From: Bdellovibrionales bacterium
GTDB taxonomy: Bacteria; Bdellovibrionota; Bdellovibrionia; Bdellovibrionales; UBA1609
Length of the DNA: 64,000 bases
Direction of reading: 5' to 3'
NCBI GenBank assembly: GCA_041690295.1
Contig: JAWLHR010000011.1
Location: forward strand, 1-64,000
Of the stretch, positions 28,230 through 56,651 are shown piece by piece. The stretch's first letter is position 1, and each line of letters starts with the position of its first letter. A model generated the notes under the pieces. It was not told the origin of the DNA. It worked only from the letters and a program-made list of their open reading frames with translations, and did not search any database. Position numbers and translations under genes: made by a program.

Positions 28230-30686
28230 CTAGCGTCTCCGACCTTTCGCCTCGGGGCGGGCGGTGAGAGGGTCTTCAGGCCAGGAATGTTTGGGGTAGC
28301 GGGCGCGGAGTTCTTTGCGGACTTCGACGTAACCGGTGCGCCAGAAATTACCAAGGTCGGACGTGACTTGGACCGGGCGGAAATTTGGACCGAGCAAGCG
28401 GAAAGTCAAAGGCACGCGACCGAACACGAGGCTCGGTCCCTCGCGCAAACCAAAAACCTCTTGCAAGCGAACGTCCACGAACGCTGAATGCATCTCCGAG
28501 TAATCGATCTTGTGACGAAACCCCGAGGGCGCCAGCCAATCCGCCGGCACTTCGCGGTTCAACACCGCCATCGCTTCCGAACCAAGAACAGTGGCAAAAA
28601 TCCCAACCAAGTCGCCGGATAAAACCTGCTCGATGCTCGTGCAACCGTAACCCGCCATGCGCAAGGCTTCGCGGATTTTCTCTTCGCCAAAAAGCTCGGC
28701 GGAACCCGGATCATGATGAGCTAAAAACTTCCAACGCCGCACCAGCGATCCAAGTCCCGCATGACGCTCCACCAGCTGATCCCAGCGCCGCCAAAGCTCT
28801 TCACCCATTAACTCGCTCACCTGGTCGGCCGCCACTTCCGTTAACGTGGGACGGTCGATCGGTAAATCGAGAATAAAACGACAACGCCGGCCGAAGAACC
28901 GCTCCTTCTCCTCGTCAAAATAAACATCTTCGCGCGTTTCCACACGATCGCCGAGATGACGAAGCAGAAAATCTTTGTCGAAACCCGACGCCAAACTCAC
29001 CAGCGTATCGGCCTGACCGCCCTGATCCACGCCCTGCAACGCCACAAAGAATTCACTTCCGCGCGCCAAAGATTCGGGCACTAAACGCACACCGCGACCC
29101 CCGACCATCAATCCGCGGTCTCCGCTGTCGCGCCGGCGGCACAAGCGATCGAGCTGTGACAACAAAAGCACTTTTTGCACATCTTCCAACTCGGCCTCGC
29201 GGGAATCCGCCGCAACCAACCCGCTCAACTGCTCCGCACTCTGCCGAATCCAACCTCGCGCCCGACCCCGACGGGCCTCTTCAAGCCGAACCCATAAATC
29301 GCAATTCACTCCGCCGAATCGTTCATAATTTCCCGCCAACGAATCCCGTTCATTCAAGATGGCGCAAATCCAAGCCGCGGTCTGACCGACTCCCAGCTCT
29401 TCACCTTTCGCCAAAATCGCCCCTAACCGGGGCGGCAAAGGAAAATCCGCGAGACGCCGGCCGAAGTTCGTGATCCGATGATCCTGACCGATCGCCCCCA
29501 AGCTCATCAAAAATCGTCGGGCAAAATCCAGCAAAGCCCCGGGCGGAGGATCAAACCACGAAAACGAACTGAAATTGGAAATCCCCATTTGCGAAAGCCA
29601 AAGCAACGCCTGACTCAAGTCCACACGCTGAACTTCAGGCACCGACTCTTCGGACTGAGTCACTTCTTCGTGGGGCGTCCACAATCGCAAACAAAGTCCG
29701 GGCCCAAGGCGGGCCGCGCGGCCCGCGCGCTGGCGGGCGCTGAAAAGAGAAATCCGTTCCAGCTCCAGGGCCGAAAATCCCGTGCGCAGATGACAGTGCA
29801 TAACTTTCGCAATCCCCGTGTCCACAACGGCATCCACACCGTCCACCGTCACCGAAGCTTCCGCCACGTTCGTCGCCAAAATGATCCGCCGCCGGCCGGA
29901 ACCGCCGCCACGCAAGACCTGATTCTGTTCGGCCAACGGCAAAGAACCATGAAGTGGAACACGATCGCCATCCAAGCCTTCGAGCTTTCCGCTCAACCGT
30001 TCGATCTCTCCCCGCCCCGGTAAAAACACAAGTACATCCCGCCGGGTACGATGAAAAACGTCTCGAACGGCGGAGGCCGCGCGACTGTAAAACTCCTCAT
30101 CGGTCCGCAACCGCAGCGGCTGATTCTGATGTTCAATGGTCAGCGGAAAGGTTTCGCCGGCGATATCCAAATGAACCGAATCGTCCAAATAAGACGTCAA
30201 TCTCTCCGCATTTAAAGTGGCCGACATGATCATAAGTTTCAAGGGCGAGCCCACCATCTGTTGCTCTTTGAGATAGGCCAGCGCCAGATCCTGATTCAAA
30301 TTCCTTTCGTGAAATTCGTCGATGACCACCAGATCCACGCCACGCAATTCGGGATCGTCCAGCAGTTTGCGCAGGAACAAGGCATCGGTCATGAAAATCA
30401 ACCGGGTCTTCGCGCTCACCCGCGACTCAAACCGAACCTGATAACCGGCCTCTTCGCCGACCTTCCAGCCGCGCTCTTCACACACACGATGACAAGCGGC
30501 CACCGCCGCTATCCGCCGCGGCTGCAAGACGAGAATCCGCCCGCTAAAAACACTCAGCATTTGCGGAGGCAATCGGGTCGTCTTTCCCGTACCGGGCGCA
30601 GCCGTGAGAATTAAATTTGAACATCCGCGAACCGCCGAAACGATCTCCGGCAACCGCGAATCTATGGGTAATGGAGTGAGATTCAC
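28230..30686 (-). CDS. hrpB: ATP-dependent helicase HrpB
   Basis: 'GTGKTT', 'DEFHER', 'MSAT', 'QRAGRAAR', C-terminal 'RYPKHSWPEDP'. Confidence 0.96.
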   Translation of the reverse strand: MNLTPLPIDSRLPEIVSAVRGCSNLILTAAPGTGKTTRLPPQMLSVFSGRILVLQPRRIAAVAACHRVCEERGWKVGEEAGYQVRFESRVSAKTRLIFMTDALFLRKLLDDPELRGVDLVVIDEFHERNLNQDLALAYLKEQQMVGSPLKLMIMSATLNAERLTSYLDDSVHLDIAGETFPLTIEHQNQPLRLRTDEEFYSRAASAVRDVFHRTRRDVLVFLPGRGEIERLSGKLEGLDGDRVPLHGSLPLAEQNQVLRGGGSGRRRIILATNVAEASVTVDGVDAVVDTGIAKVMHCHLRTGFSALELERISLFSARQRAGRAARLGPGLCLRLWTPHEEVTQSEESVPEVQRVDLSQALLWLSQMGISNFSSFSWFDPPPGALLDFARRFLMSLGAIGQDHRITNFGRRLADFPLPPRLGAILAKGEELGVGQTAAWICAILNERDSLAGNYERFGGVNCDLWVRLEEARRGRARGWIRQSAEQLSGLVAADSREAELEDVQKVLLLSQLDRLCRRRDSGDRGLMVGGRGVRLVPESLARGSEFFVALQGVDQGGQADTLVSLASGFDKDFLLRHLGDRVETREDVYFDEEKERFFGRRCRFILDLPIDRPTLTEVAADQVSELMGEELWRRWDQLVERHAGLGSLVRRWKFLAHHDPGSAELFGEEKIREALRMAGYGCTSIEQVLSGDLVGIFATVLGSEAMAVLNREVPADWLAPSGFRHKIDYSEMHSAFVDVRLQEVFGLREGPSLVFGRVPLTFRLLGPNFRPVQVTSDLGNFWRTGYVEVRKELRARYPKHSWPEDPLTARPEAKGRRR

Positions 30687-30735
30687 GCAAGAGAATTATG
30701 CAAAAGGAATGGAAGAAGACAAAGGAATAATCGCC

Positions 30736-30768
30736 AAAAACTCCCCGGAATTCCGAAGAACTCCGGGC
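30736..30768 (-). terminator. Intrinsic terminator of flagellin 1
   Basis: Minus strand CCCGGAGTTC-TTCG-GAATTCCGGG-GAG-TTTTT. Confidence 0.65.
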
Positions 30769-30823
30769 AGGTAGGCACCGCGGGAGCGGAGAACCTACTC
30801 CCGCGAAAACAATCTCAATTCAA

Positions 30824-31657
30824 TTAGCCGATCAACTTCAGCGCCAAGCTCGGCTGAGTGTTGGCCTGAGTCAAAATTCCCACCGAGGCGTTCAACAGGA
30901 TGTTATTGCGGGAAAGCTCGGCGGAACTTTGCGCGATGTCGGCATCCCGGATCCGCGAATTCGCGGCCGAGAAGTTTTCAACCGCCACACCCAGATTCTC
31001 GGTGGTGGAAACCAAACGGTTTTGGATCGCACCGAGAGTCGCGCGATGGCCGTTCACCATCCGTTGAGCGTCTTCGAGGACTTCAAGAGCCTCGCGGGCG
31101 CCGGCCTTGTCGGAAAAGTCGAAACCATCAATCCCTAAGGCGGCGGTTGTCGCGTTGATCTCCGAGGGAGAAAAACCAATTCGGTCCCGGAAATCATTAT
31201 TGTTAATGTCGATTTGGAAATCGAAGTGTTCGCCTTCACCGTTAATGAGCGTTGTTTTTCCGAAGCGGGTGGTTTGAGCGATACGTTCCGATTCCATTTT
31301 CAATTGTTGAATTTCTTTATCAATGAATGAGCGCTCCACATCACCGACTGTATCGGAGGCCGCCTGCACGGCGAGTTCCCGCATACGAGTCAAAATATTG
31401 GAGATCTCACCCAATCCGCCTTCCGCGACCTGCACCATGGAGATACCGTCGTTGGCGTTACGCTGAGCTTGCGCGTAACCGCGGATCGTCGACTTCAAAG
31501 CCTCACTGATCGACAGACCAGCGGCATCATCGGCCGCTTTGGTGATGCGGCTTCCAGAAGCCAACTGCGCGAAGCTTTTGTTGATTTCACGTTGTGTGAC
31601 ACCCATCGATCGTTGTGCATTGATCGAGGCCACGTTGGTACTGACTCTGAGTCCCAT
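30824..31657 (-). CDS. fliC: Flagellin 1 (277 aa, D0/D1 only)
   Basis: 'LASGSRITKAADDAAGLSI', 'NANDGISMVQVAEGGL', 'SRIRDADIA'. Confidence 0.97.
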   Translation of the reverse strand: MGLRVSTNVASINAQRSMGVTQREINKSFAQLASGSRITKAADDAAGLSISEALKSTIRGYAQAQRNANDGISMVQVAEGGLGEISNILTRMRELAVQAASDTVGDVERSFIDKEIQQLKMESERIAQTTRFGKTTLINGEGEHFDFQIDINNNDFRDRIGFSPSEINATTAALGIDGFDFSDKAGAREALEVLEDAQRMVNGHRATLGAIQNRLVSTTENLGVAVENFSAANSRIRDADIAQSSAELSRNNILLNASVGILTQANTQPSLALKLIG

Positions 31658-31833
31658 TTTGTTCTCCTTTTGCCCTCGCGGGGCGATGGTAAAAGAAGTC
31701 CCTTTCCCTTCCGCGCGAAACCGTACCTACTCAGTCGCACGCTGAAGAGCTCTAAAAATCCATGAGCTTGGGTTGATTGTTTTTGTTTTCCTCAACACCG
31801 GACCGGCTAGGTCCTGTGCTTCAGACGACAAGC

Positions 31834-31860
31834 TATTCGGCGAGTCGGGTGAAGGCTTAA
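31834..31860 (-). promoter_or_regulatory. sigma28 promoter, flagellin 1
   Basis: TTAA-N15-GCCGAATA; implies a ~170-nt leader. Confidence 0.75.
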
Positions 31861-32146
31861 GTCGCGTCCTGTGAATCTGGACGAAAGATGGAAAATTTCT
31901 GGACGATCGCCCTGGAATTCCCGACCTATCGCGGGATTCTTCAGGACGACGGACGAGTCTTAGGACGTTTCGGTTAAGACCTTGAGCACCTCACCCATGG
32001 GCGGTGCGGACCAACACCGAGTCGAGCCGCCTCCCATTAGTACCCCGAGGAACAAAGTTGCTCCCCGGGTAGGTCAGGTACCGCCGCGGAATTTCCGCGA
32101 CCGGGAGAGCAAAGGAGCAACTCTCCCGTTTTCAAAGTTCAAATCA

Positions 32147-32980
32147 TTATCCAATCAGCTTCAGCGCGGCCGCCGGCTGCATATTCGCTTGCGTCAACAC
32201 GCCGATGGAGGCGTTGAGCAAAACGTTGTTGCGCGCCAGTTCCGCCGAGCTTTGCGCCACGTCGGCATCGCGGACCCGTGAGTTCGCGGCCGAGAAGTTT
32301 TCGATCGCGACGCCGAGGTTTTCGGTGGTCGAGATCAATCGGTTTTGGATCGCGCCCAAATTCGCGCGGTATCCGTTCACCTGGCGCTGAGCATCTTCGA
32401 GAATTTCCAATGCCTCACGCGCGCCGTCTTTGGTCGAAAAATCGAATCCATCCACGCCAAGAGTGGCGATCGTGGCGTCTTGTTGGCTGGCATCGAACGA
32501 AATCCGGTCATTGAAGTCATCATTGTTGATGTCCACTTGGAAAGTGTACTCGGAACCGGTTCCGTCAAGCAGAGTTTGTGATCCCCAGCGAGTGGTTTTC
32601 GCGATACGTTCCATTTCATTTTTCAACTGTTGAACTTCTTTATCGATAAATCCCCGCTCGATCTCACCGACCGTGTCGGAAGCGGCCTGCACGCCCAATT
32701 CACGCATGCGGGTCAAAATGTTTGAGATCTCGGCGAGTCCGCCTTCGGAAACCTGAACCATCGAGATACCGTCGCTGGCGTTTCGTTGCGCCTGCGTGTA
32801 ACCGCGGATCGTGGATTTCAAGGTCTCACTGATCGAGAGACCGGCGGCATCGTCCGCGGCTTTCGTGATCCGCGAACCGGTGGCGAGCTGCGCGAAACTC
32901 TTGTTGATCTCGCGGCTCGATCCGCTCATCGCGCGTTGTGCGGCGATGGACGGGATATTTGTAGTAATTCTCAGACCCAT
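32147..32980 (-). CDS. fliC: Flagellin 2 (277 aa)
   Basis: Start MGLRITTN after AAGGAGG; close paralog of flagellin 1. Confidence 0.97.
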   Translation of the reverse strand: MGLRITTNIPSIAAQRAMSGSSREINKSFAQLATGSRITKAADDAAGLSISETLKSTIRGYTQAQRNASDGISMVQVSEGGLAEISNILTRMRELGVQAASDTVGEIERGFIDKEVQQLKNEMERIAKTTRWGSQTLLDGTGSEYTFQVDINNDDFNDRISFDASQQDATIATLGVDGFDFSTKDGAREALEILEDAQRQVNGYRANLGAIQNRLISTTENLGVAIENFSAANSRVRDADVAQSSAELARNNVLLNASIGVLTQANMQPAAALKLIG

Positions 32981-33203
32981 GGAGGTCCTCCTTTGCAGTT
33001 GAGGCGAACCATCGCCCGGCTCTCCCGACTCGAACCTACTCAAGTCCTAATGAGGAAAGCGACGCTTCCATGCGCTCTTGGGTTGAACACGTTGGAGCAG
33101 TAGATGAATTTAATGAACGCCAAAGCTTCAAGCGAGCATCTCACGGGCAGTCACTCCCGAAGGCGCTCTCACCTGGCGTGAACCCATTCACTGCACGCCT
33201 AAC

Positions 33204-33230
33204 CATTCGGCGAGGTCTGGGCGAACTAAA
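33204..33230 (-). promoter_or_regulatory. sigma28 promoter, flagellin 2
   Basis: TTTA-N15-GCCGAATG; implies a ~215-nt leader. Confidence 0.72.
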
Positions 33231-33334
33231 GTCTCGTCCAGTGAAACTGGACCATGGTCCGACCAAAACTGGACCTTCGATCGGGATTTTCACATGAAAT
33301 CAAATTTGTTTAATGACATCGTGTGTTCGGACTT

Positions 33335-34087
33335 TTATCGCCCGGACGAATGACTTTCAGACGTGGGTCCAAGAAGGTGTTCTTCACACGCGCGGGCGGC
33401 GAGCCAGAAATTGAGTTTAGCCCGCGCCCCGGAACTTAACGATTCCGGCCATTCAGGAACCAACTCTATGATTTTGAGGACTCCGCGAACCACCGATTCC
33501 GGTGTGCGGGCATCAATGGTTTTCACCAGTGAGTCGGGCTCACGAAAGCGCCTATACGCCCAGTCCATGACCAAGGCTTCGATTTCGTCCTTGAAGAGAG
33601 GATCCCGCTGCCTGAGGAGTTTCAATTGATAGAAATAGGAGAGACATTGTTTCGCACACCGCCCGATCAACGGCGGCGCGGATTCCGGATCGACATGGAT
33701 CACGGGAGCGCCAATGTGTTCAAGAATGGCCGTTATGGCCTCAATATGATTCTGCAGCCAAAGGAGAAAAACCAACTCACGCTCAAACGCCGGAGTGAAC
33801 ACGCCGTCTTCCAAAAAGCGCGCGAGGAATCGGATTTGGATCAAAGGATCGAGCGATCCACCTTCGGTCATCAAAATGCGTGTGAGATCGACATTATCAC
33901 GGACCCGGATTTCCGCCGGCACATCCAGGGATCGTCGCTTCTCCAGAAACTCGCGCAGGTTCTTGACCGCCGTCGCGGCGTTCCCCTCTCTGGCTTCACG
34001 AATGAGCTCGTTACCGAGGGCCGCAAGCCACACGGAAGCCCGCGACTGGGTGGAGGAGGAGAGAAGAAACCACAGCAAAAGTTCCAC
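33335..34087 (-). CDS. Hypothetical helical protein, possibly secreted
   Basis: 250-aa ORF divergent from the radical SAM gene; short hydrophobic N-terminus. Confidence 0.55.
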   Translation of the reverse strand: MELLLWFLLSSSTQSRASVWLAALGNELIREAREGNAATAVKNLREFLEKRRSLDVPAEIRVRDNVDLTRILMTEGGSLDPLIQIRFLARFLEDGVFTPAFERELVFLLWLQNHIEAITAILEHIGAPVIHVDPESAPPLIGRCAKQCLSYFYQLKLLRQRDPLFKDEIEALVMDWAYRRFREPDSLVKTIDARTPESVVRGVLKIIELVPEWPESLSSGARAKLNFWLAARACEEHLLGPTSESHSSGR

Positions 34088-34143
34088 AACGCGAGAAGCT
34101 GCAAGAGCTAAGCCAGGCTTTTTGTGTTATAGAATCGGCGTCT

Positions 34144-35178
34144 ATGAGCATAAAAGGGCGAGGCACGTCCACCAATCCATTCAATCGCTTTGATAAACAT
34201 CAAGTGAAACTTGACGATAGCGAACCGGCTGTCGCGCCCCGCACGGAGATCCTGCGCGACATCTCCCGCAGTATCGTCGCTGAGAACGACAGTCCCGACA
34301 TCGGGTTTCGTTATTCCATCAACCCCTATCGCGGATGTGAGCACGGCTGCGCCTATTGTTACGCCCGTCCCACTCACGAGTATCTCGGATTTTCCGCGGG
34401 ATTGGACTTCGAAACGAAAATCCTCGTTAAGGAAAATGCCCCGCAATTGCTGCGTGAAAAATTGATGTCAAGAAGCTGGAAACCTGAATTGATCGTGATC
34501 AGCGGCAACACGGACTGTTATCAACCGCTGGAACGAAAGTTCCGTCTCACGCGGGGACTTCTTGAAGTGCTGCTCGAGTTCCGTAATCCCGCGGGCTTGA
34601 TCACAAAAAATCACTTAATCACCAGGGATTTGGATCTCCTTTCTGAAATGGCGGCTTTGAACATCGTATCCACCACCATTTCCATCACCTCTCTCGATAA
34701 CGATCTGATCGCCGCGCTCGAACCGCGAACTTCGCGGCCGGCGGCTCGCCTTGAGGCGGTCGCGGCCCTCGCCCAAGCCGGCGTTCCGGTGCATGTGAAT
34801 GTGGCACCGGTCATTCCCGGCCTGAACGATCACGAGATTCCAAAAATCCTAAAAGCCGCGGCCGAGGCCGGCGCGAAAACCGCGGCCTTCACGCCGGTGC
34901 GATTGCCGCTCGCGGTTTTACCTATATTTACGGATTGGCTGGAGACTCACCGGCCACTGAGAAAAGACAAAGTTTTGAATGCGATTCGCGACGTGCGAAG
35001 GGGAAAACTGAATGATTCCAATTTTGGAACACGAATGCGTGGCGCGGGTCCGGTTTATGATCAGATCTCTCAGCTGTTTAAAATTCATTGCGCTAAATTA
35101 GGTTTGAATAAAGAAAAATCCAATCTCACCACCGAACATTTCCGGCGACCGAGCGATCAGCTTTCGTTTTTTGATTGA
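34144..35178 (+). CDS. Radical SAM protein (PA0069/Rv2578c, spore-photoproduct-lyase-like family)
   Basis: 'SINPYRGCEHGCAYCYARPTHEYLG..GLDFE', 'NTDCYQP', 'LEPRT', C-terminal 'QLSFF'. Confidence 0.92.
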   Translation: MSIKGRGTSTNPFNRFDKHQVKLDDSEPAVAPRTEILRDISRSIVAENDSPDIGFRYSINPYRGCEHGCAYCYARPTHEYLGFSAGLDFETKILVKENAPQLLREKLMSRSWKPELIVISGNTDCYQPLERKFRLTRGLLEVLLEFRNPAGLITKNHLITRDLDLLSEMAALNIVSTTISITSLDNDLIAALEPRTSRPAARLEAVAALAQAGVPVHVNVAPVIPGLNDHEIPKILKAAAEAGAKTAAFTPVRLPLAVLPIFTDWLETHRPLRKDKVLNAIRDVRRGKLNDSNFGTRMRGAGPVYDQISQLFKIHCAKLGLNKEKSNLTTEHFRRPSDQLSFFD

Positions 35179-35190
35179 GAGTGCGCCCGG

Positions 35191-35226
35191 AAAAAAACCC
35201 CGGGGCGTGTGGGACGACCCCAGGGC
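35191..35226 (-). terminator. Intrinsic terminator of flagellin 3
   Basis: Minus strand CCCTGGGG-loop-CCCCGGGG-TTTTTTT. Confidence 0.75.
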
Positions 35227-35334
35227 GGGCTTAATTCAGGCGGCGATTGTCTGTGGGCGTCGCCGCCCTAATAAGGGACCATGATTCCAGCCGGTGGCGC
35301 GAGGGGCACCACCGGCCGAACTTAAATTCTTTGA

Positions 35335-36165
35335 TTAACCGATCAATTTGAGAGCCGAAGCCCCGTTCTGATTGGCTTGGGCCAGAACCCCGACCGATGC
35401 GGCCTGGAGAATTTGCGCCGAAGTCATCTCGGAGGTTTCGTACGCGATGTCCGCGTCAGAGATACGAGATTTCGCGGCGGTCAGGTTTTCGTTCTGAATG
35501 TCGAGGTTACTCGTGGTCATCTGCAACCGGCTTTGAACCGCACCGAAGTCAGCGCGCATCTTACCGATTTTAACCAACGCTTCGTCCACCGCGCTCAGGG
35601 TATCCCGGGCGGAATCTTTGTCGGCGATGCCGACTCCATCAATCCCGAGAGTGCTGGTCGTGGCGTCCGCCTCGATTTTGTAACGGATCACGTTTTCTTC
35701 TTCATCGGCGAAGGGTCCGACATGGTATTCGAATTCCTCACCGTTTCCATCGAGCAATGCTTTGTTACCGAATCGGGTGGATCGGGCGATACGATCGGAC
35801 TCGGCCACGAGCTGTTGCGCTTCCTGATCGAGGAACTCACGTTCCACGTCACTGACCGTATCCGATGCGGCTTGCACGCCCAATTCACGCAAACGGATCA
35901 AGATATTTGAAATCTCATTGAGTCCGCCTTCCGACACCTGAATCAATGATTGCGCGTTGAAGGCGTTGTTGCGCGCGGCTTTAATACCGGCCAACTGACC
36001 GCGGATGTTTTCAGACACCGCGAGTCCCGCGGCGTCGTCCGCGGCTTTTACGATACGCGAACCAGACGCGAGAGCCTGTTGCGCGTGTTCCAAACGGGAT
36101 TGCTGTTTAGACAACACCCGGTGCGCCGACACAGCGGCGATATTTGTATTGATCCTTAAGCCCAT
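35335..36165 (-). CDS. fliC: Flagellin 3 (276 aa)
   Basis: 'MGLRINTN', 'SGSRIVKAADDAAGL', 'SRISDAD'; TAAGGAGG RBS. Confidence 0.97.
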   Translation of the reverse strand: MGLRINTNIAAVSAHRVLSKQQSRLEHAQQALASGSRIVKAADDAAGLAVSENIRGQLAGIKAARNNAFNAQSLIQVSEGGLNEISNILIRLRELGVQAASDTVSDVEREFLDQEAQQLVAESDRIARSTRFGNKALLDGNGEEFEYHVGPFADEEENVIRYKIEADATTSTLGIDGVGIADKDSARDTLSAVDEALVKIGKMRADFGAVQSRLQMTTSNLDIQNENLTAAKSRISDADIAYETSEMTSAQILQAASVGVLAQANQNGASALKLIG

Positions 36166-36401
36166 TGTGGCCTCCTTACTTGCTTGGCCCAGATTCCGTC
36201 GAGCCGCTGCTCAGATCGCCCGCCCACAGTCGTCCATCGGCGACGGCGAAAAGAACAGGTCGTCCCTGTCGTTTAAGTTTTTAGTTGTCGTTGGGAGGCC
36301 TCCGGTACAAAGGGGTGACTGACCCTTTGATCCGGAGTTCTTGAGGCAAGGTCACTGCTGAAATGAACCTGCCCGAGAGTGCTCCAACGTGTTCGCTATA
36401 C

Positions 36402-36428
36402 TTCTCGGCTTAGGTCCAGGAAGCTTTA
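36402..36428 (-). promoter_or_regulatory. sigma28 promoter, flagellin 3
   Basis: TAAA-N15-GCCGAGAA; implies a ~230-nt leader. Confidence 0.85.
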
Positions 36429-36531
36429 GGCTTTGGTCTAGTCTAGGTAGGTATGCAGCGCGTCTAGTAATTGAATAGACTGATTAAACGATGCAAAAAA
36501 TTTTTTGCTCTGCGCATCACAACGCAGAGCA

Positions 36532-37362
36532 TTATGTTTCTAAAAGACGCATCGCTCGTCGCGAAGAAAGGTTTGATTGGGCCACCACGGAGATGGCGGC
36601 TTCTTGCACCAGCTGAGCTTGAGCCAGCTTGGCCACTTCATCAGCCATGTCCACGTCCACAATATGCGCGCGGGCCGTATCCAGGTTTTCACCTTGAACT
36701 TCAAGCGCGTTGATCGCGTATTGCAGTCGGCTTTGCATGGCGCCGAAGCTGGCGCGTGTGCCCGCCACTTTTGACATGGCATCGTCGATATATTCGAGCG
36801 CATCCAGCGCGTCGTCTTGATCGGCGATTTCCAAATCATCGATGTCTAAATTGCTGGCCGTGGTATTGGCGTCCAGACGAAACTTAATCACATTGTCTTC
36901 GCCTTTATAAGCGCCGACCTGGAATTCGAAATTCTCGCCTGAACCGGTAAGCATCTGTTTATTTCCGTAGCGGGTGGTTTTGGCGATTCGGTCGAATTCC
37001 GCCACTAATTGGGTGAATTCATCGTTAAGGAACTCTCGTTCTTCTTCACCCACCGTGTCCGAGGCGGAATACACCGCCAACTCACGTAAACGCACGAGAA
37101 TATTGTTTTGCTCATTAAGCCCACCCTCGGCCGTTTGAATCATGCCGATGGCCGCCTCGGCGTTAAATTTCGCTTGTTTAGTACCCGCATGTTGCGCGCG
37201 CAAGGATTCGGAAATGGCGAAACCCGCGGCATCATCACCGGCCTTCACAATCCGCGAACCAGAGGCAAGGGACGATAATGATTTATCGATGGTTTGTTGC
37301 GCTCGATTTAAGAACCGTCCCGCTTGCATGGGGACAATGGATGAGGCAATTCGAAAAGCCAC
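36532..37362 (-). CDS. fliC: Flagellin 4 (276 aa, divergent termini)
   Basis: 'LASGSRIVKAGDDAAGFAI', 'QTAEGGLNE'; GTG start after AAGGAGG. Confidence 0.95.
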   Translation of the reverse strand: MAFRIASSIVPMQAGRFLNRAQQTIDKSLSSLASGSRIVKAGDDAAGFAISESLRAQHAGTKQAKFNAEAAIGMIQTAEGGLNEQNNILVRLRELAVYSASDTVGEEEREFLNDEFTQLVAEFDRIAKTTRYGNKQMLTGSGENFEFQVGAYKGEDNVIKFRLDANTTASNLDIDDLEIADQDDALDALEYIDDAMSKVAGTRASFGAMQSRLQYAINALEVQGENLDTARAHIVDVDMADEVAKLAQAQLVQEAAISVVAQSNLSSRRAMRLLET

Positions 37363-37471
37363 GTGGGCACCCTCCTTCTCCCTGTTCCAAAGCCATGACC
37401 CCCGCCCAGCTTTGAATCAGAAAGTTTTAGCGCCCACAGACTTAAAAGGTTCATTTCAGCAGTTATGGAGC

Positions 37472-37498
37472 TTATCGACGCATCGAGTTATAACTTTA
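37472..37498 (-). promoter_or_regulatory. sigma28 promoter, flagellin 4
   Basis: TAAA-N15-GTCGATAA; implies a ~100-nt leader. Confidence 0.85.
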
Positions 37499-37532
37499 GG
37501 ATTTTTTTATGCGCCACGTTAATTTTATGGAA

Positions 37533-37844
37533 TTAGGCATAAATATCTAATACTTGGCCACTGTCATCGAGCCTTTTCAGGTTCTCTTGAGCCCGCAGAT
37601 AGGGGTGCGTGATTGGCTGGAACTTCGACACCCTCGGACGGTTTTTCTGCTCTTTTTCTTTGCTTTCTTTATGGATGAATCGTGCGAAACGAAGAAGCGC
37701 GTTCTGCGTTTCTTCGTCCAATGTTAACTGAGGTTGCTGCGGTGACGCCGCCGGTTCCACCTCTTTAGGTACAACCTTTAGCTTTTCACCTCTCTCCAGC
37801 TGCTGACCCGATGTCCTTATTAGATCGGCGCCTGAGTAAAGCAT
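37533..37844 (-). CDS. Small hypothetical protein
   Basis: Ends 'GQVLDIYA', a tail type seen on small flagellar-region proteins; start uncertain. Confidence 0.5.
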   Translation of the reverse strand: MLYSGADLIRTSGQQLERGEKLKVVPKEVEPAASPQQPQLTLDEETQNALLRFARFIHKESKEKEQKNRPRVSKFQPITHPYLRAQENLKRLDDSGQVLDIYA

Positions 37845-37988
37845 TACTACCAGCCTAGCAGGACTTTGGGTCAGTGACCGGGAAATTTTATGGAACGCGT
37901 TAGAGCCGTAAAATTACATCAGAAATCTGTATCAAAATAAAACATGGCCCTTCATTGCGCGCTCACTCGCCTTCGATAGAATGAGCGG

Positions 37989-39017
37989 ATGAAAAGCGCC
38001 CGCTTGCCGGTGATCGATCTGATACGGCTGTTTTCCTTTCTTGCGATCATCATCTTTCACACCAGCTTCACACTTTGGCCGGCGGCTCAATTTGATAGGG
38101 TGCCGGAGCCGAGCCTCTGGATCACACCACTGGAAACTTACGCGCGCGCCCTGAGTTTCAGCGGATTCACGGTTATTTTTCTTTCTTTTTTTCTGTTCGG
38201 CTTCAAAGCGGAATTGAAACAAAATTGGTTTAGACTATGGCTCTTGATGCTGGCCTTTTTCGCCCTGTGGAGATTGGGCGGCGATGACTTTCCTTATATA
38301 TGGGACATTTACCCCTACTTGCTCGTGGTGGTCGCGCTCTCAGCCCTCCTTCGCAATTGGCCGGGTTGGTTGCTGGCCATCCTGGGTGGAATTTTGACCA
38401 GTATTCCGTTTTGGCATTTCGAACCGCGACTGCAGCTGGTCGACTGGTTGAGCGGCCCGATTTTCGGAAACTGTCATCTCAACGATCTTGACGGTGATGA
38501 GTGGCCGCTTTTGCCCTGGATCGGTTACCCGATTTTCGCTTTCGGGATGGGGCGCTTGGCGCGGAAATACGAAAACAAATTAAAATCCATGTCTTTTGGC
38601 GAAATCGTATTTTGGTCGGCGGCATTGGGAATAAGCCTGAATCAAATCGGAGAATATTATGCGACTCCACTGGGCTATCGGTTCGGATGTTTTATCTTTC
38701 GCCGGCCGCCTCTAACGTTCTGGTCGCATCAAATCTGGATTATTTTTCTCGTCCGCCTGGGTTATACACGCGTGGTCAATACCTGGCTAACTCGCAACCG
38801 CTTGGTGACTTGGATCACACAGCGCCCGGTGAATCGGAAATTTTATTTGGCGTACTTTCTACATTACCCTTTTTGTCTGGTTTGGGCGGCGGGCGCATCG
38901 CATTTGAATCTGAACTTGCAACCATGGGTCTTCGCGGCCGGCGTGTTCGCTTGTGTCATCTGGGTTGAGTATTCAACGGTTGTCTTAAGTCGAATACTTC
39001 TAAATAATAAAAAATAG
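37989..39017 (+). CDS. Polytopic membrane protein, DUF1624/acyltransferase-3-like
   Basis: 'DLIRLFSFLAIIIFH', 'WPLLPWIGY', 'YLAYFLH'; many TM segments. Confidence 0.6.
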   Translation: MKSARLPVIDLIRLFSFLAIIIFHTSFTLWPAAQFDRVPEPSLWITPLETYARALSFSGFTVIFLSFFLFGFKAELKQNWFRLWLLMLAFFALWRLGGDDFPYIWDIYPYLLVVVALSALLRNWPGWLLAILGGILTSIPFWHFEPRLQLVDWLSGPIFGNCHLNDLDGDEWPLLPWIGYPIFAFGMGRLARKYENKLKSMSFGEIVFWSAALGISLNQIGEYYATPLGYRFGCFIFRRPPLTFWSHQIWIIFLVRLGYTRVVNTWLTRNRLVTWITQRPVNRKFYLAYFLHYPFCLVWAAGASHLNLNLQPWVFAAGVFACVIWVEYSTVVLSRILLNNKK

Positions 39018-55811: not shown

Positions 55812-56339
55812 TTAGGCCTCGACTTCAGGCGGGCGCTTCAGCTTGACGGCGACATCCGTGTAAACCGATTGGTTCTTGATGATGGCTCCGGGATTCTGCA
55901 CCACGCGCTGCTGCAGGCGGGTGAAAATCGGTTCGCGAATGGCCAATGAATTGTCCTGGAGAACCACTTGACGGGCCACTCGACTTTGCACGTGGATGAC
56001 AATCGGAGCCTTAAGGTTCGCCGTCATTTGAGTGGGATCGGACGGAATGGTGATGATCGAGAAAAACCGGATCCCTTCCGTCGACTTAAGTCCCATGATT
56101 TCCAGATCATGCTTGGTTAACTGCACCGTGTAGTTATTGGTGAACAGCTCCGGCTCAAGAAGCGGAAAAGCGATATTTGGGTCCTCACAACTTTGGAGCC
56201 AAGCGAAAATTTCATCGGTGGGGTCATCCAGCAGGACGAAGCGACGGAGTTCGTTGAAGCCCAATAGGCCTTCGGGAAAGTGAATAATGTCCTCTGACGT
56301 AATGGCCACCGCACCAAAACGGCTAGTTGAAATCACCAT
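55812..56339 (-). CDS. fliW: Flagellar assembly factor FliW
   Basis: 'FPEGLLGF', 'WLQS', 'TANLKAPIVI', 'QVVL'. Confidence 0.95.
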   Translation of the reverse strand: MVISTSRFGAVAITSEDIIHFPEGLLGFNELRRFVLLDDPTDEIFAWLQSCEDPNIAFPLLEPELFTNNYTVQLTKHDLEIMGLKSTEGIRFFSIITIPSDPTQMTANLKAPIVIHVQSRVARQVVLQDNSLAIREPIFTRLQQRVVQNPGAIIKNQSVYTDVAVKLKRPPEVEA

Positions 56340-56420
56340 TTCTTTCCCCCCCGGATCCAGGATGCCCCTAAAAAGGGGGACACTTCAAGATCTAATGAGG
56401 GTTAATAACGCGAAGCCGTG

Positions 56421-56651
56421 TTATTTGTTTTTAAGAAGCTCGGCGACCTGCTTAGCCCTGTCCGGATTGGCGGAGACGGATTCTTGGTTTTGATTCTGAA
56501 TCGCCAGGTAGACTTCCTCGCGGTGAATCTTGGTATCCTTGGGGGCCTCGATACCAAGCCTGACCTGTTTACCCTTTATCTGAACGACCCGAATTTTGAT
56601 ATGGTCATCGATCGCGATACTTTCGCCAAGTTTCCGGGTCAGAACCAACAT
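56421..56651 (-). CDS. csrA: Carbon storage regulator CsrA
   Basis: 'MLVLTRKLGESI', 'VRLGIEAP...IHREEVY'. Confidence 0.98.
   Translation of the reverse strand: MLVLTRKLGESIAIDDHIKIRVVQIKGKQVRLGIEAPKDTKIHREEVYLAIQNQNQESVSANPDRAKQVAELLKNK

Follow-up and report, generated by a model that had tools for sequence, protein, structure and literature searches.

The flagellin locus and the F3 tail

This work concerns an RNA element at the 3' end of a flagellin gene, here named F3, in a Bdellovibrionales bacterium (GenBank assembly GCA_041690295.1). The window, i.e., the whole stretch of 64,000 nucleotides that was analysed (contig JAWLHR010000011.1, positions 1 to 64,000), contains four flagellin genes, F1 to F4, all on the minus strand; F5 to F7 lie elsewhere in the 2.88-Mb genome. 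Close homologues of F3 are labelled Bdellovibrionales, and when a solved Bdellovibrio flagellin was sought for F3, none stood out. The F3 coding sequence is followed by a tail composed of a variable spacer, a hairpin whose loop carries a word that we call seed A, a linker, UUAAGCCC, that we call seed B, and a terminator-like hairpin; the last three make up what we refer to as the tail module. The tail presumably shares the promoter of F3, which, like that of F4, was predicted from the sigma-28 consensus. This consensus agrees with the FliA motif in the part of PMC3627812 used here. The features are collected in Table 1.

Table 1. Flagellin genes of the window and the RNA elements of F3 and its partners
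Feature	Position	Strand	Remark
F1 flagellin gene	30824-31657	minus	
F2 flagellin gene	32147-32980	minus	
F2 leader site	33085..33099	minus	complementary to F3 5'-end arm
F3 3' tail	35191..35334	minus	variable spacer, seed-A hairpin, seed-B linker, terminator
Terminator-like hairpin and U run	35191..35225	minus	loop CCCAC conserved in many genomes
Seed B (linker)	35227..35234	minus	complementary to F3 codons 1-4
Seed-A hairpin	35239..35267	minus	stem varies between genomes; loop 35247-35259 conserved
Seed A (loop)	35249..35259	minus	complementary to F4 leader site 2; 9 nt also to F3 leader
First tail hairpin	35286..35320	minus	sequence not conserved
F3 flagellin coding sequence	35335..36165	minus	276 aa; carries tail and leader elements
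F3 own seed-B target	36156..36163	minus	last base of AUG and codons 2-4; fixed synonymous codons
Secondary seed-A target, F3 leader	36221..36229	minus	-64 to -56; mostly genus-confined
F3 leader hairpin	36308..36329	minus	loop CAGUCAC (36315-36321) complementary to F2 leader loop (33148-33154); read by eye
F3 leader arm	36354..36370	minus	17/17 complement of F4 5' end
F3 5'-end arm	36380..36394	minus	15/15 complement of F2 leader
F3 sigma-28-type promoter match	36402..36428	minus	predicted
F4 flagellin coding sequence	36532..37362	minus	276 aa; GUG start
F4 coding target of seed B	37114..37127	minus	E-G-G-L codons; 14 bp, one G-U, with linker extended to 35222-35235
F4 start region	37356..37371	minus	predicted paired with site 2 when tail absent
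F4 leader site 2	37431..37441	minus	seed-A target; predicted start-blocking strand
F4 leader site 1	37447..37463	minus	predicted 5' end; F3-arm target; 5 nt from site 2
F4 sigma-28-type promoter match	37472..37498	minus	predicted

Loci of F3, F4, F2, F1, F6 and F7 were taken from genomes within the genus, the family and the order and sorted by tree, and 40 named loci were added. The scan of named genomes that supplied the latter gave loci of the Pseudobdellovibrio type and not HD100; B. qaytius (L171) has both F4 and F3. The tail module follows 41 of 47 F3 orthologues, with the linker 57-244 nt past the F3 stop. The linker pattern is missing in the other six: the contig ends in G014, there is none within 400 nt in G047, and G037, G049, G059 and G056 also lack it. 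Leaving out four loci without an F4 leader (G008, G013, G030 and G044) gives the 37 genomes in which F3 and F4 were compared.

An earlier note on this DNA had described the tail and several of its contacts; all of its positions and sequence words are exact on the minus (mRNA) strand, and the tail hairpins fold as it had stated. The predicted fold consists of three hairpins and is more stable than any of 200 shuffled sequences (z = -4.24). Seed A, an 11-mer, sits in a hairpin loop and is predicted to be single-stranded, with an opening cost of 0.4 kcal/mol. In other genomes the stem beneath it has been freely rewritten while the loop was kept: the core loop word forms a hairpin loop in 22 of the 26 tails that bear it, over 18 different stem arms.

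Seed A and the leader of F4

Seed A is an 11/11 complement of site 2 in the F4 leader. The match, already seen in the earlier note, is rare: none of 100 shuffled leaders contains one, and the word has just two places in the genome. When the 60 nt before the linker were compared with the F4 leader in 35 genomes (the first search pattern missed G009 and G018), 32 had a complementary run of at least 9 nt, with a mean run of 11.4 versus 6.2 for shuffled sequences; in G031 the run is only 8 nt. Among the leaders of other paralogues, used as a control, such a run occurs in 1 of 79. Seed A and F4 leaders of the same genome pair at -34.5 kcal/mol versus -28.5 +/- 0.7 kcal/mol after permutation (0 of 10,000 as good), although related genomes are not independent in this comparison.

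The covariation across relatives that the earlier note had proposed to look for is present. Seed A and its F4 target change together by substitution in G055, G042, G048 and G050, by deletion in G046 and by insertion in G040/G052, and in G038, G060, G028 and G022 a rewritten seed A is matched by a rewritten target. An F4-like hit better than F3 itself is absent in five genomes, and all five are devoid of the seed-A word: the module is missing from three, the loop of G056 is a different one, and G044 keeps seed B along with a GAAA loop.

The F4 leader folded alone suggests what the contact may do. In this genome, site 2 is predicted to form a 15-bp helix over the GUG start codon, and pairing of site 2 with the F4 start (at least 4 expected pairs) is predicted in 27 of the 37 genomes. 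When site 2 is held open, the predicted cost of opening the F4 ribosome site falls in this genome from 21.5 to 13.8 kcal/mol, and a fall of at least 1 kcal/mol is seen in 28 of 37 genomes (mean 13.1 to 9.2, control windows 11.8; these two counts and the next include G027, in which the F4 start was mis-set). Net binding of seed A to site 2 is predicted at -5 kcal/mol or below in 34 of 37. Since site 2 is predicted to hide the start codon, its binding would activate F4, and thus seed A likely frees the F4 start and turns F4 on, as far as such folding models can tell.

Seed B, the F3 start and a site within F4

The best-conserved pairing, absent from the earlier note, is the one between seed B and codons 1-4 of F3 itself. 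It reaches at least 8 nt in 32 of 41 genomes, compared with 2 of 124 paralogues. The target is kept by fixed synonymous codons: GGC UUA AG is used in 36 of 43 F3 genes starting with G-L-R and in 2 of 64 paralogues. In 63 loci (the 41 plus 22 named ones, duplicates and module-less loci left out), one position of this duplex is G-C in 42, A-U in 19 and G-U in 2, with no mismatch, and a second one is U-A in 55 loci, with G-C found in 2. The 1.2-kb whole mRNA was folded for every second genome (19 of 21 covered) with a program that cannot draw loop-loop pairs; pairing between linker and start has a probability (P) of at least 0.5 in 15 of these 19 genomes and 0.60 here. These observations support the closing of the F3 mRNA on its own start by seed B. 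Small RNAs (sRNAs) that bind just after a start codon are established to block initiation, and pairing on codons 1-4 would be expected to do the same.

Seed B matches a second coding site as well, codons 79-82 of F4 (E-G-G-L). The codons GAG GGY GGG CU are fixed there in 15 of 16 F4 genes of the genus versus 1 of 56 paralogues, and paired changes of seed B and this site are seen in G038, G060 and G048. In named loci of the Pseudobdellovibrio type (L155-L186), seed B is kept while the tail loop is now a word complementary to the Shine-Dalgarno sequence of F3 itself (mean 6.2 nt, or 7.7 with G-U, in 26 loci, figures that come with no shuffle control).

Predicted contacts of the F3 leader

Two longer matches, likewise absent from the earlier note, link the F3 leader with its sister genes. 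An arm of the leader is a 17/17 complement of the predicted F4 5' end (site 1), beside the seed-A target, and this match covers at least 11 nt in 35 of 39 genomes. The two F4 sites stand -2 to 11 nt apart in 26 of 37. The F3 5' end is a 15/15 complement of the F2 leader, with at least 10 nt matching an F2-type leader in 28 of 41 genomes. Paired changes are visible in the leader-leader contacts (G010, G026, G032 and G016, G031, G044), and in G022 and G046 the leader arm and site 1 were lost together, site 2 being kept. Holding site 1 alone lowers the F4 opening cost by at least 1 kcal/mol in 14 of 37 genomes. The idea that F3 leader arms open the ribosome sites of F2 or F3 is not supported in this genome (F2 8.7 to 9.4, F3 8.1 to 11.4 kcal/mol).

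A map of six paralogues, with 36 tail-leader and 15 leader-leader pairs, places these contacts in perspective. Just four pairs stand out, all of them involving F3: F3 tail-F4 leader (mean 11.0), F3 tail-F3 start (9.3), F3 leader-F4 leader (15.8) and F3 leader-F2 leader (13.2), against a background of 7.0-9.0.

Some further observations touch the same leader. In G022 (contig C6, near 210626), the F3 leader is about 63 nt long and has the anti-F2 arm only; F4 site 1 is lost, and seed A and site 2 have changed together. The hairpin loops of the F3 and F2 leaders change together, by eye, in G008, G026 and G044 and might be a kissing pair. A conserved CUCC at about 36292-36300, just after the second F3 leader hairpin, is present by eye in most orthologues and could pair with the F3 Shine-Dalgarno sequence. 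The F6 tail matches the F3 leader too (13/13); we dropped this match as not conserved (at least 10 nt in 1 of 19 genomes).

Apparent counterparts in Bdellovibrio bacteriovorus HD100

HD100 was compared solely through the published tables of PMC3627812, and what follows refers to the part of that source used here. Gene Bd0604 (fliC1) spans 562130-562954. The RNA APsRNA3 starts 276 nt upstream of it, at a FliA promoter, and APsRNA4, listed with 98 nt and no FliA promoter, starts 30 nt after its stop; both are entered as intergenic sRNAs, and that part names neither a target for them nor a connection with flagellins. By eye, APsRNA3 and the F3 leader have a 5' word and a hairpin loop in common, the anti-F4 arm being absent from APsRNA3, and the Bd0606 promoter resembles F2 promoters. 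Because of these two likenesses, F3 is probably the orthologue of fliC1. APsRNA4 apparently corresponds to the F3 tail, an equivalence drawn from its place after the gene, and fits a separate tail RNA as well as a plain 3' untranslated region (3'UTR). HD100 may lack F4, since its flagellins are all at least 55% identical to FliC2, whereas F4 and F2 of the present genome share 41.5% identity.

Other features of the flagellin genes

Several features of the neighbourhood and of other flagellins stand apart from the F3 tail. An open reading frame at 34144-35178, which we take to be radical-SAM-like from a CxxxCxxC motif in its translation, converges on the F3 terminator, and the gene in this place differs from relative to relative. 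Several flagellins have conserved DNA words (CUAGAC-like repeats and GACGC) immediately upstream of their sigma-28-type promoters (36430-36470; upstream of F1 and F2), and these might be activator sites. The F1 and F2 leaders have a common conserved hairpin loop, GAGUAGGU (about 31724-31733 and 33034-33043), and words complementary to it (ACCUAC) are present in the tails of both genes. The leaders of F6 and F7 contain hairpins with GGA loops that resemble CsrA targets. The F6 tail (G000, contig C1, after 105117; loci L112-L131) has a conserved structure of its own, with the words UUARCUCAC and GUUUCCUGCG, a GGAUG hairpin and a terminator; no partner stood out for it among the leaders tested, F5 being sampled in 3 genomes.

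A search of 30000-38500 against Rfam gave no match at gathering score and a single hit below threshold (E = 0.96) that lies outside the elements. Neither ProQ (no PF04352 match) nor Hfq was found in the genome, which is 99.89% complete; an RNase E/G family gene and an RNase III gene are present.

A probable two-seed switch and its alternatives

Such evidence induces us to favour, as the more probable interpretation, a two-seed translation switch in which the F3 tail damps F3 and activates F4. After synthesis of the tail, the linker would bend back onto the first codons of F3 and damp its translation, while the loop of the seed-A hairpin would pull off the strand that hides the F4 start codon, turning F4 on. 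Both seeds and the leader arm have targets on the F4 mRNA, which could therefore also release F3, by taking both seeds. The tail might act while still attached to its mRNA, or as an sRNA after being cut off. Judging from sequence comparison, we infer that the pairings form in cells, and their purpose may be the setting of flagellin order or ratio. The earlier note had offered a closed-loop mRNA or a 3'UTR-derived regulator. The first idea finds support in the linker and codons 1-4 and not in the two nested 9-mers on which that note had based it; the second gains support from covariation as regards action on F4, with activation as the predicted effect.

It is tempting to go one step further and suppose a handshake between two mRNAs that needs no chaperone. 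The F3 mRNA, self-shut after transcription, would grip the F4 leader with both of its ends at adjacent sites, free the F4 start and reopen itself. We put this forward tentatively, as an idea that may well prove wrong. If true, both flagellins would be translated as a pair and from complete transcripts only, which would set the ratio or order of subunits in a filament of several flagellins.

Several observations weigh against the switch, and we list them together. With regard to the tail, RNAalifold run on 30 tails recovered the terminator only and not the seed-A stem, because the stems do not align, and the linker is about half unpaired (mean 0.46). As for F4, seed A finds no match in G045, in which F4 is present, and it is kept in G013 and G030, in which F4 was not found (both assemblies are fragmented). 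Site 2 is not paired with the start in 10 of 37 F4 leaders, the gain on opening it is below 1 kcal/mol in 9 of 37, 5 of 19 control windows open the ribosome site of this genome as well as site 2 does, and the predicted activation is weaker outside the family. For seed B, the predicted F3-start duplex is a short one of 8-9 bp in this genome (net about -6 kcal/mol), the second position mentioned above is mismatched in 6 of the 63 loci, and the 19 A-U pairs come mostly from one clade and so stand for few independent events; outside the genus, just 4 of 15 F4 genes have the fixed coding site. In HD100, APsRNA4 is matched to the tail by position, its level is 3,500 versus 11,984 reads per kilobase per million (RPKM) for the Bd0604 coding region, and its printed sequence ends before any linker or terminator (PMC3627812, in the part used). 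Two short contigs from one sequencing run fall within the F3 coding region and none covers the tail, which is evidence neither way.

The same pairings could instead control mRNA lifetime, with the F3 ends shielding the F4 5' end from nucleases and the closed loop marking F3 for cutting. The position of site 1 at the predicted F4 5' end, the RNase genes just mentioned and the hly-prsA2 and icaR precedents (see below), as far as the parts of those papers used here go, would agree with this; pure shielding, however, needs no pairing of site 2 with the start, yet such pairing is predicted in most genomes. We find lifetime control unlikely as the main role, keeping in mind that effects on stability and on translation are not exclusive. 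Repression of F4 at several leader and coding sites, after the example of the Vibrio RNA FlaX and its target flaB, is improbable in our view. F4 does present several targets (site 2, the coding site and, in some genomes, a weaker third one for the terminator loop), which recalls the three FlaX sites on flaB in the part of the FlaX paper used, but no conserved target lies over the F4 ribosome site, and binding at site 2 is predicted to open that site rather than close it.

The earlier note proposed a closure of the tail on the F3 leader through two 9-mers in nested antiparallel order, in competition with CsrA at a GGGA hairpin. The order is as described, both 9-mers are exact here, and csrA and fliW lie adjacent in the window (55926-56651); moreover, B. 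bacteriovorus CsrA represses a flagellin reporter, according to the part of the published work used here. Nevertheless, the details speak against it. The match of GGUCGUCCC (35211-35219) to the GGGA site (36258-36266) is 9/9 in this genome but 3-5 nt in 15 other genomes with a located site. This word is not mostly in the loop, as had been thought: the predicted terminator takes up 5 of the 9 bases in pairs, exposing it would cost 10.8 kcal/mol, and its pairing has P = 0.01 in the whole-mRNA fold. The other 9-mer (35251-35259), also exact at 9/9 with the -64 site, is borderline when taken alone (2 of 60 shuffles, 28 genome copies); a match of at least 8 nt is kept in 13 of 17 genus genomes and in 3 of 24 outside, and P = 0 in the same fold, whose program, as said, draws no loop-loop pairs. 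Finally, the consensus of 30 tails has no GGA. Competition with CsrA is thus a very improbable account. A third word, GCCCGCCC (35223-35230), matches 36218-36225 exactly (8/8), and 7 nt of it complement 37401-37407, as noted earlier; the former match reaches 8 nt in 2 of 41 genomes, and because its target overlaps that of the 9-mer at the -64 site, both cannot pair on one molecule. Pairing of GCCCGCCC with the F3 leader or the F4 leader loop (7-9 nt) is limited to a few close relatives and was not retained as general. That all these matches are due to chance, or are protein-binding or DNA motifs occurring in both orientations, seems to us hardly credible. The seeds are short and G+C-rich and the genomes are related, but partner sites change along with the motif, indels and synonymous codons included, which a shared protein motif would not do.

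Comparison with known systems

By analogy, the two-seed switch would work like FlaX combined with a closed loop of the icaR type and an mRNA contact of the hly-prsA2 type; these comparisons refer to the parts of the sources used here. FlaX of Vibrio is a flagellin 3'UTR RNA, made from the promoter of that flagellin, that represses one paralogue, flaB, at three sites (PMC11879080), and it activates minor flagellins (flaB/flaD in V. parahaemolyticus), in which it opens a structure that impedes initiation (bioRxiv 10.64898/2026.08.28.747715). The likeness is that the 3'UTR RNA of one flagellin is complementary to leaders of sister flagellins, here the conserved and covarying match to F4. FlaX is released as a stable RNA by RNase E, and an RNase E/G family gene exists in the present genome too. 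However, FlaX comes from a different phylum and is bound and stabilised by ProQ, whereas neither ProQ nor Hfq was found here; it leaves a reporter of its own flagellin unchanged, but the seed conserved best in F3 is complementary to the start of the same message; and here, unlike in FlaX, the leader of the same mRNA also matches the target, beside the tail site. As ProQ was not found, we do not count the tail as FlaX itself.

In icaR of S. aureus (PMC3868564), as in F3, a 3'UTR motif is complementary to the initiation region of its own mRNA. That motif pairs with the Shine-Dalgarno sequence, blocking 30S binding and creating an RNase III substrate, while seed B pairs with codons 1-4 (the loop of Pseudobdellovibrio-type loci does match the Shine-Dalgarno sequence); an RNase III gene exists here, but the predicted duplex has just 8-12 bp, and, unlike in icaR, the seeds have alternative targets on another mRNA. 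In Listeria monocytogenes, the hly 3'UTR, as part of a full-length mRNA, pairs with the functionally linked prsA2 in its 5'UTR and raises its output (PMC8722363); that case involves stability, one contact and unrelated genes, and the present one paralogues and up to three contacts. CsrA-sequestering RNAs of the CsrB/Rsm type carry several GGA motifs in hairpin loops, in contrast to the GGA-free tail consensus.

We found no description of such a flagellin tail element in the open-licence Bdellovibrio literature. Bdellovibrio filaments contain several flagellins in ordered blocks, although the genes are transcribed together (PMC2791853). How flagellin order or ratio is set is a question for which the tail offers contacts that can be tested base by base, and it also suggests where APsRNA3 and APsRNA4, two attack-phase RNAs of the model predator that are as yet uncharacterised, may find their targets. 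What it would add to RNAs of the FlaX type is a self-closing seed with synonymous codons fixed across an order. Overall, by analogy, the tail seems to be an independent answer to the problem that FlaX solves in Vibrio, in a genome without detectable Hfq or ProQ.

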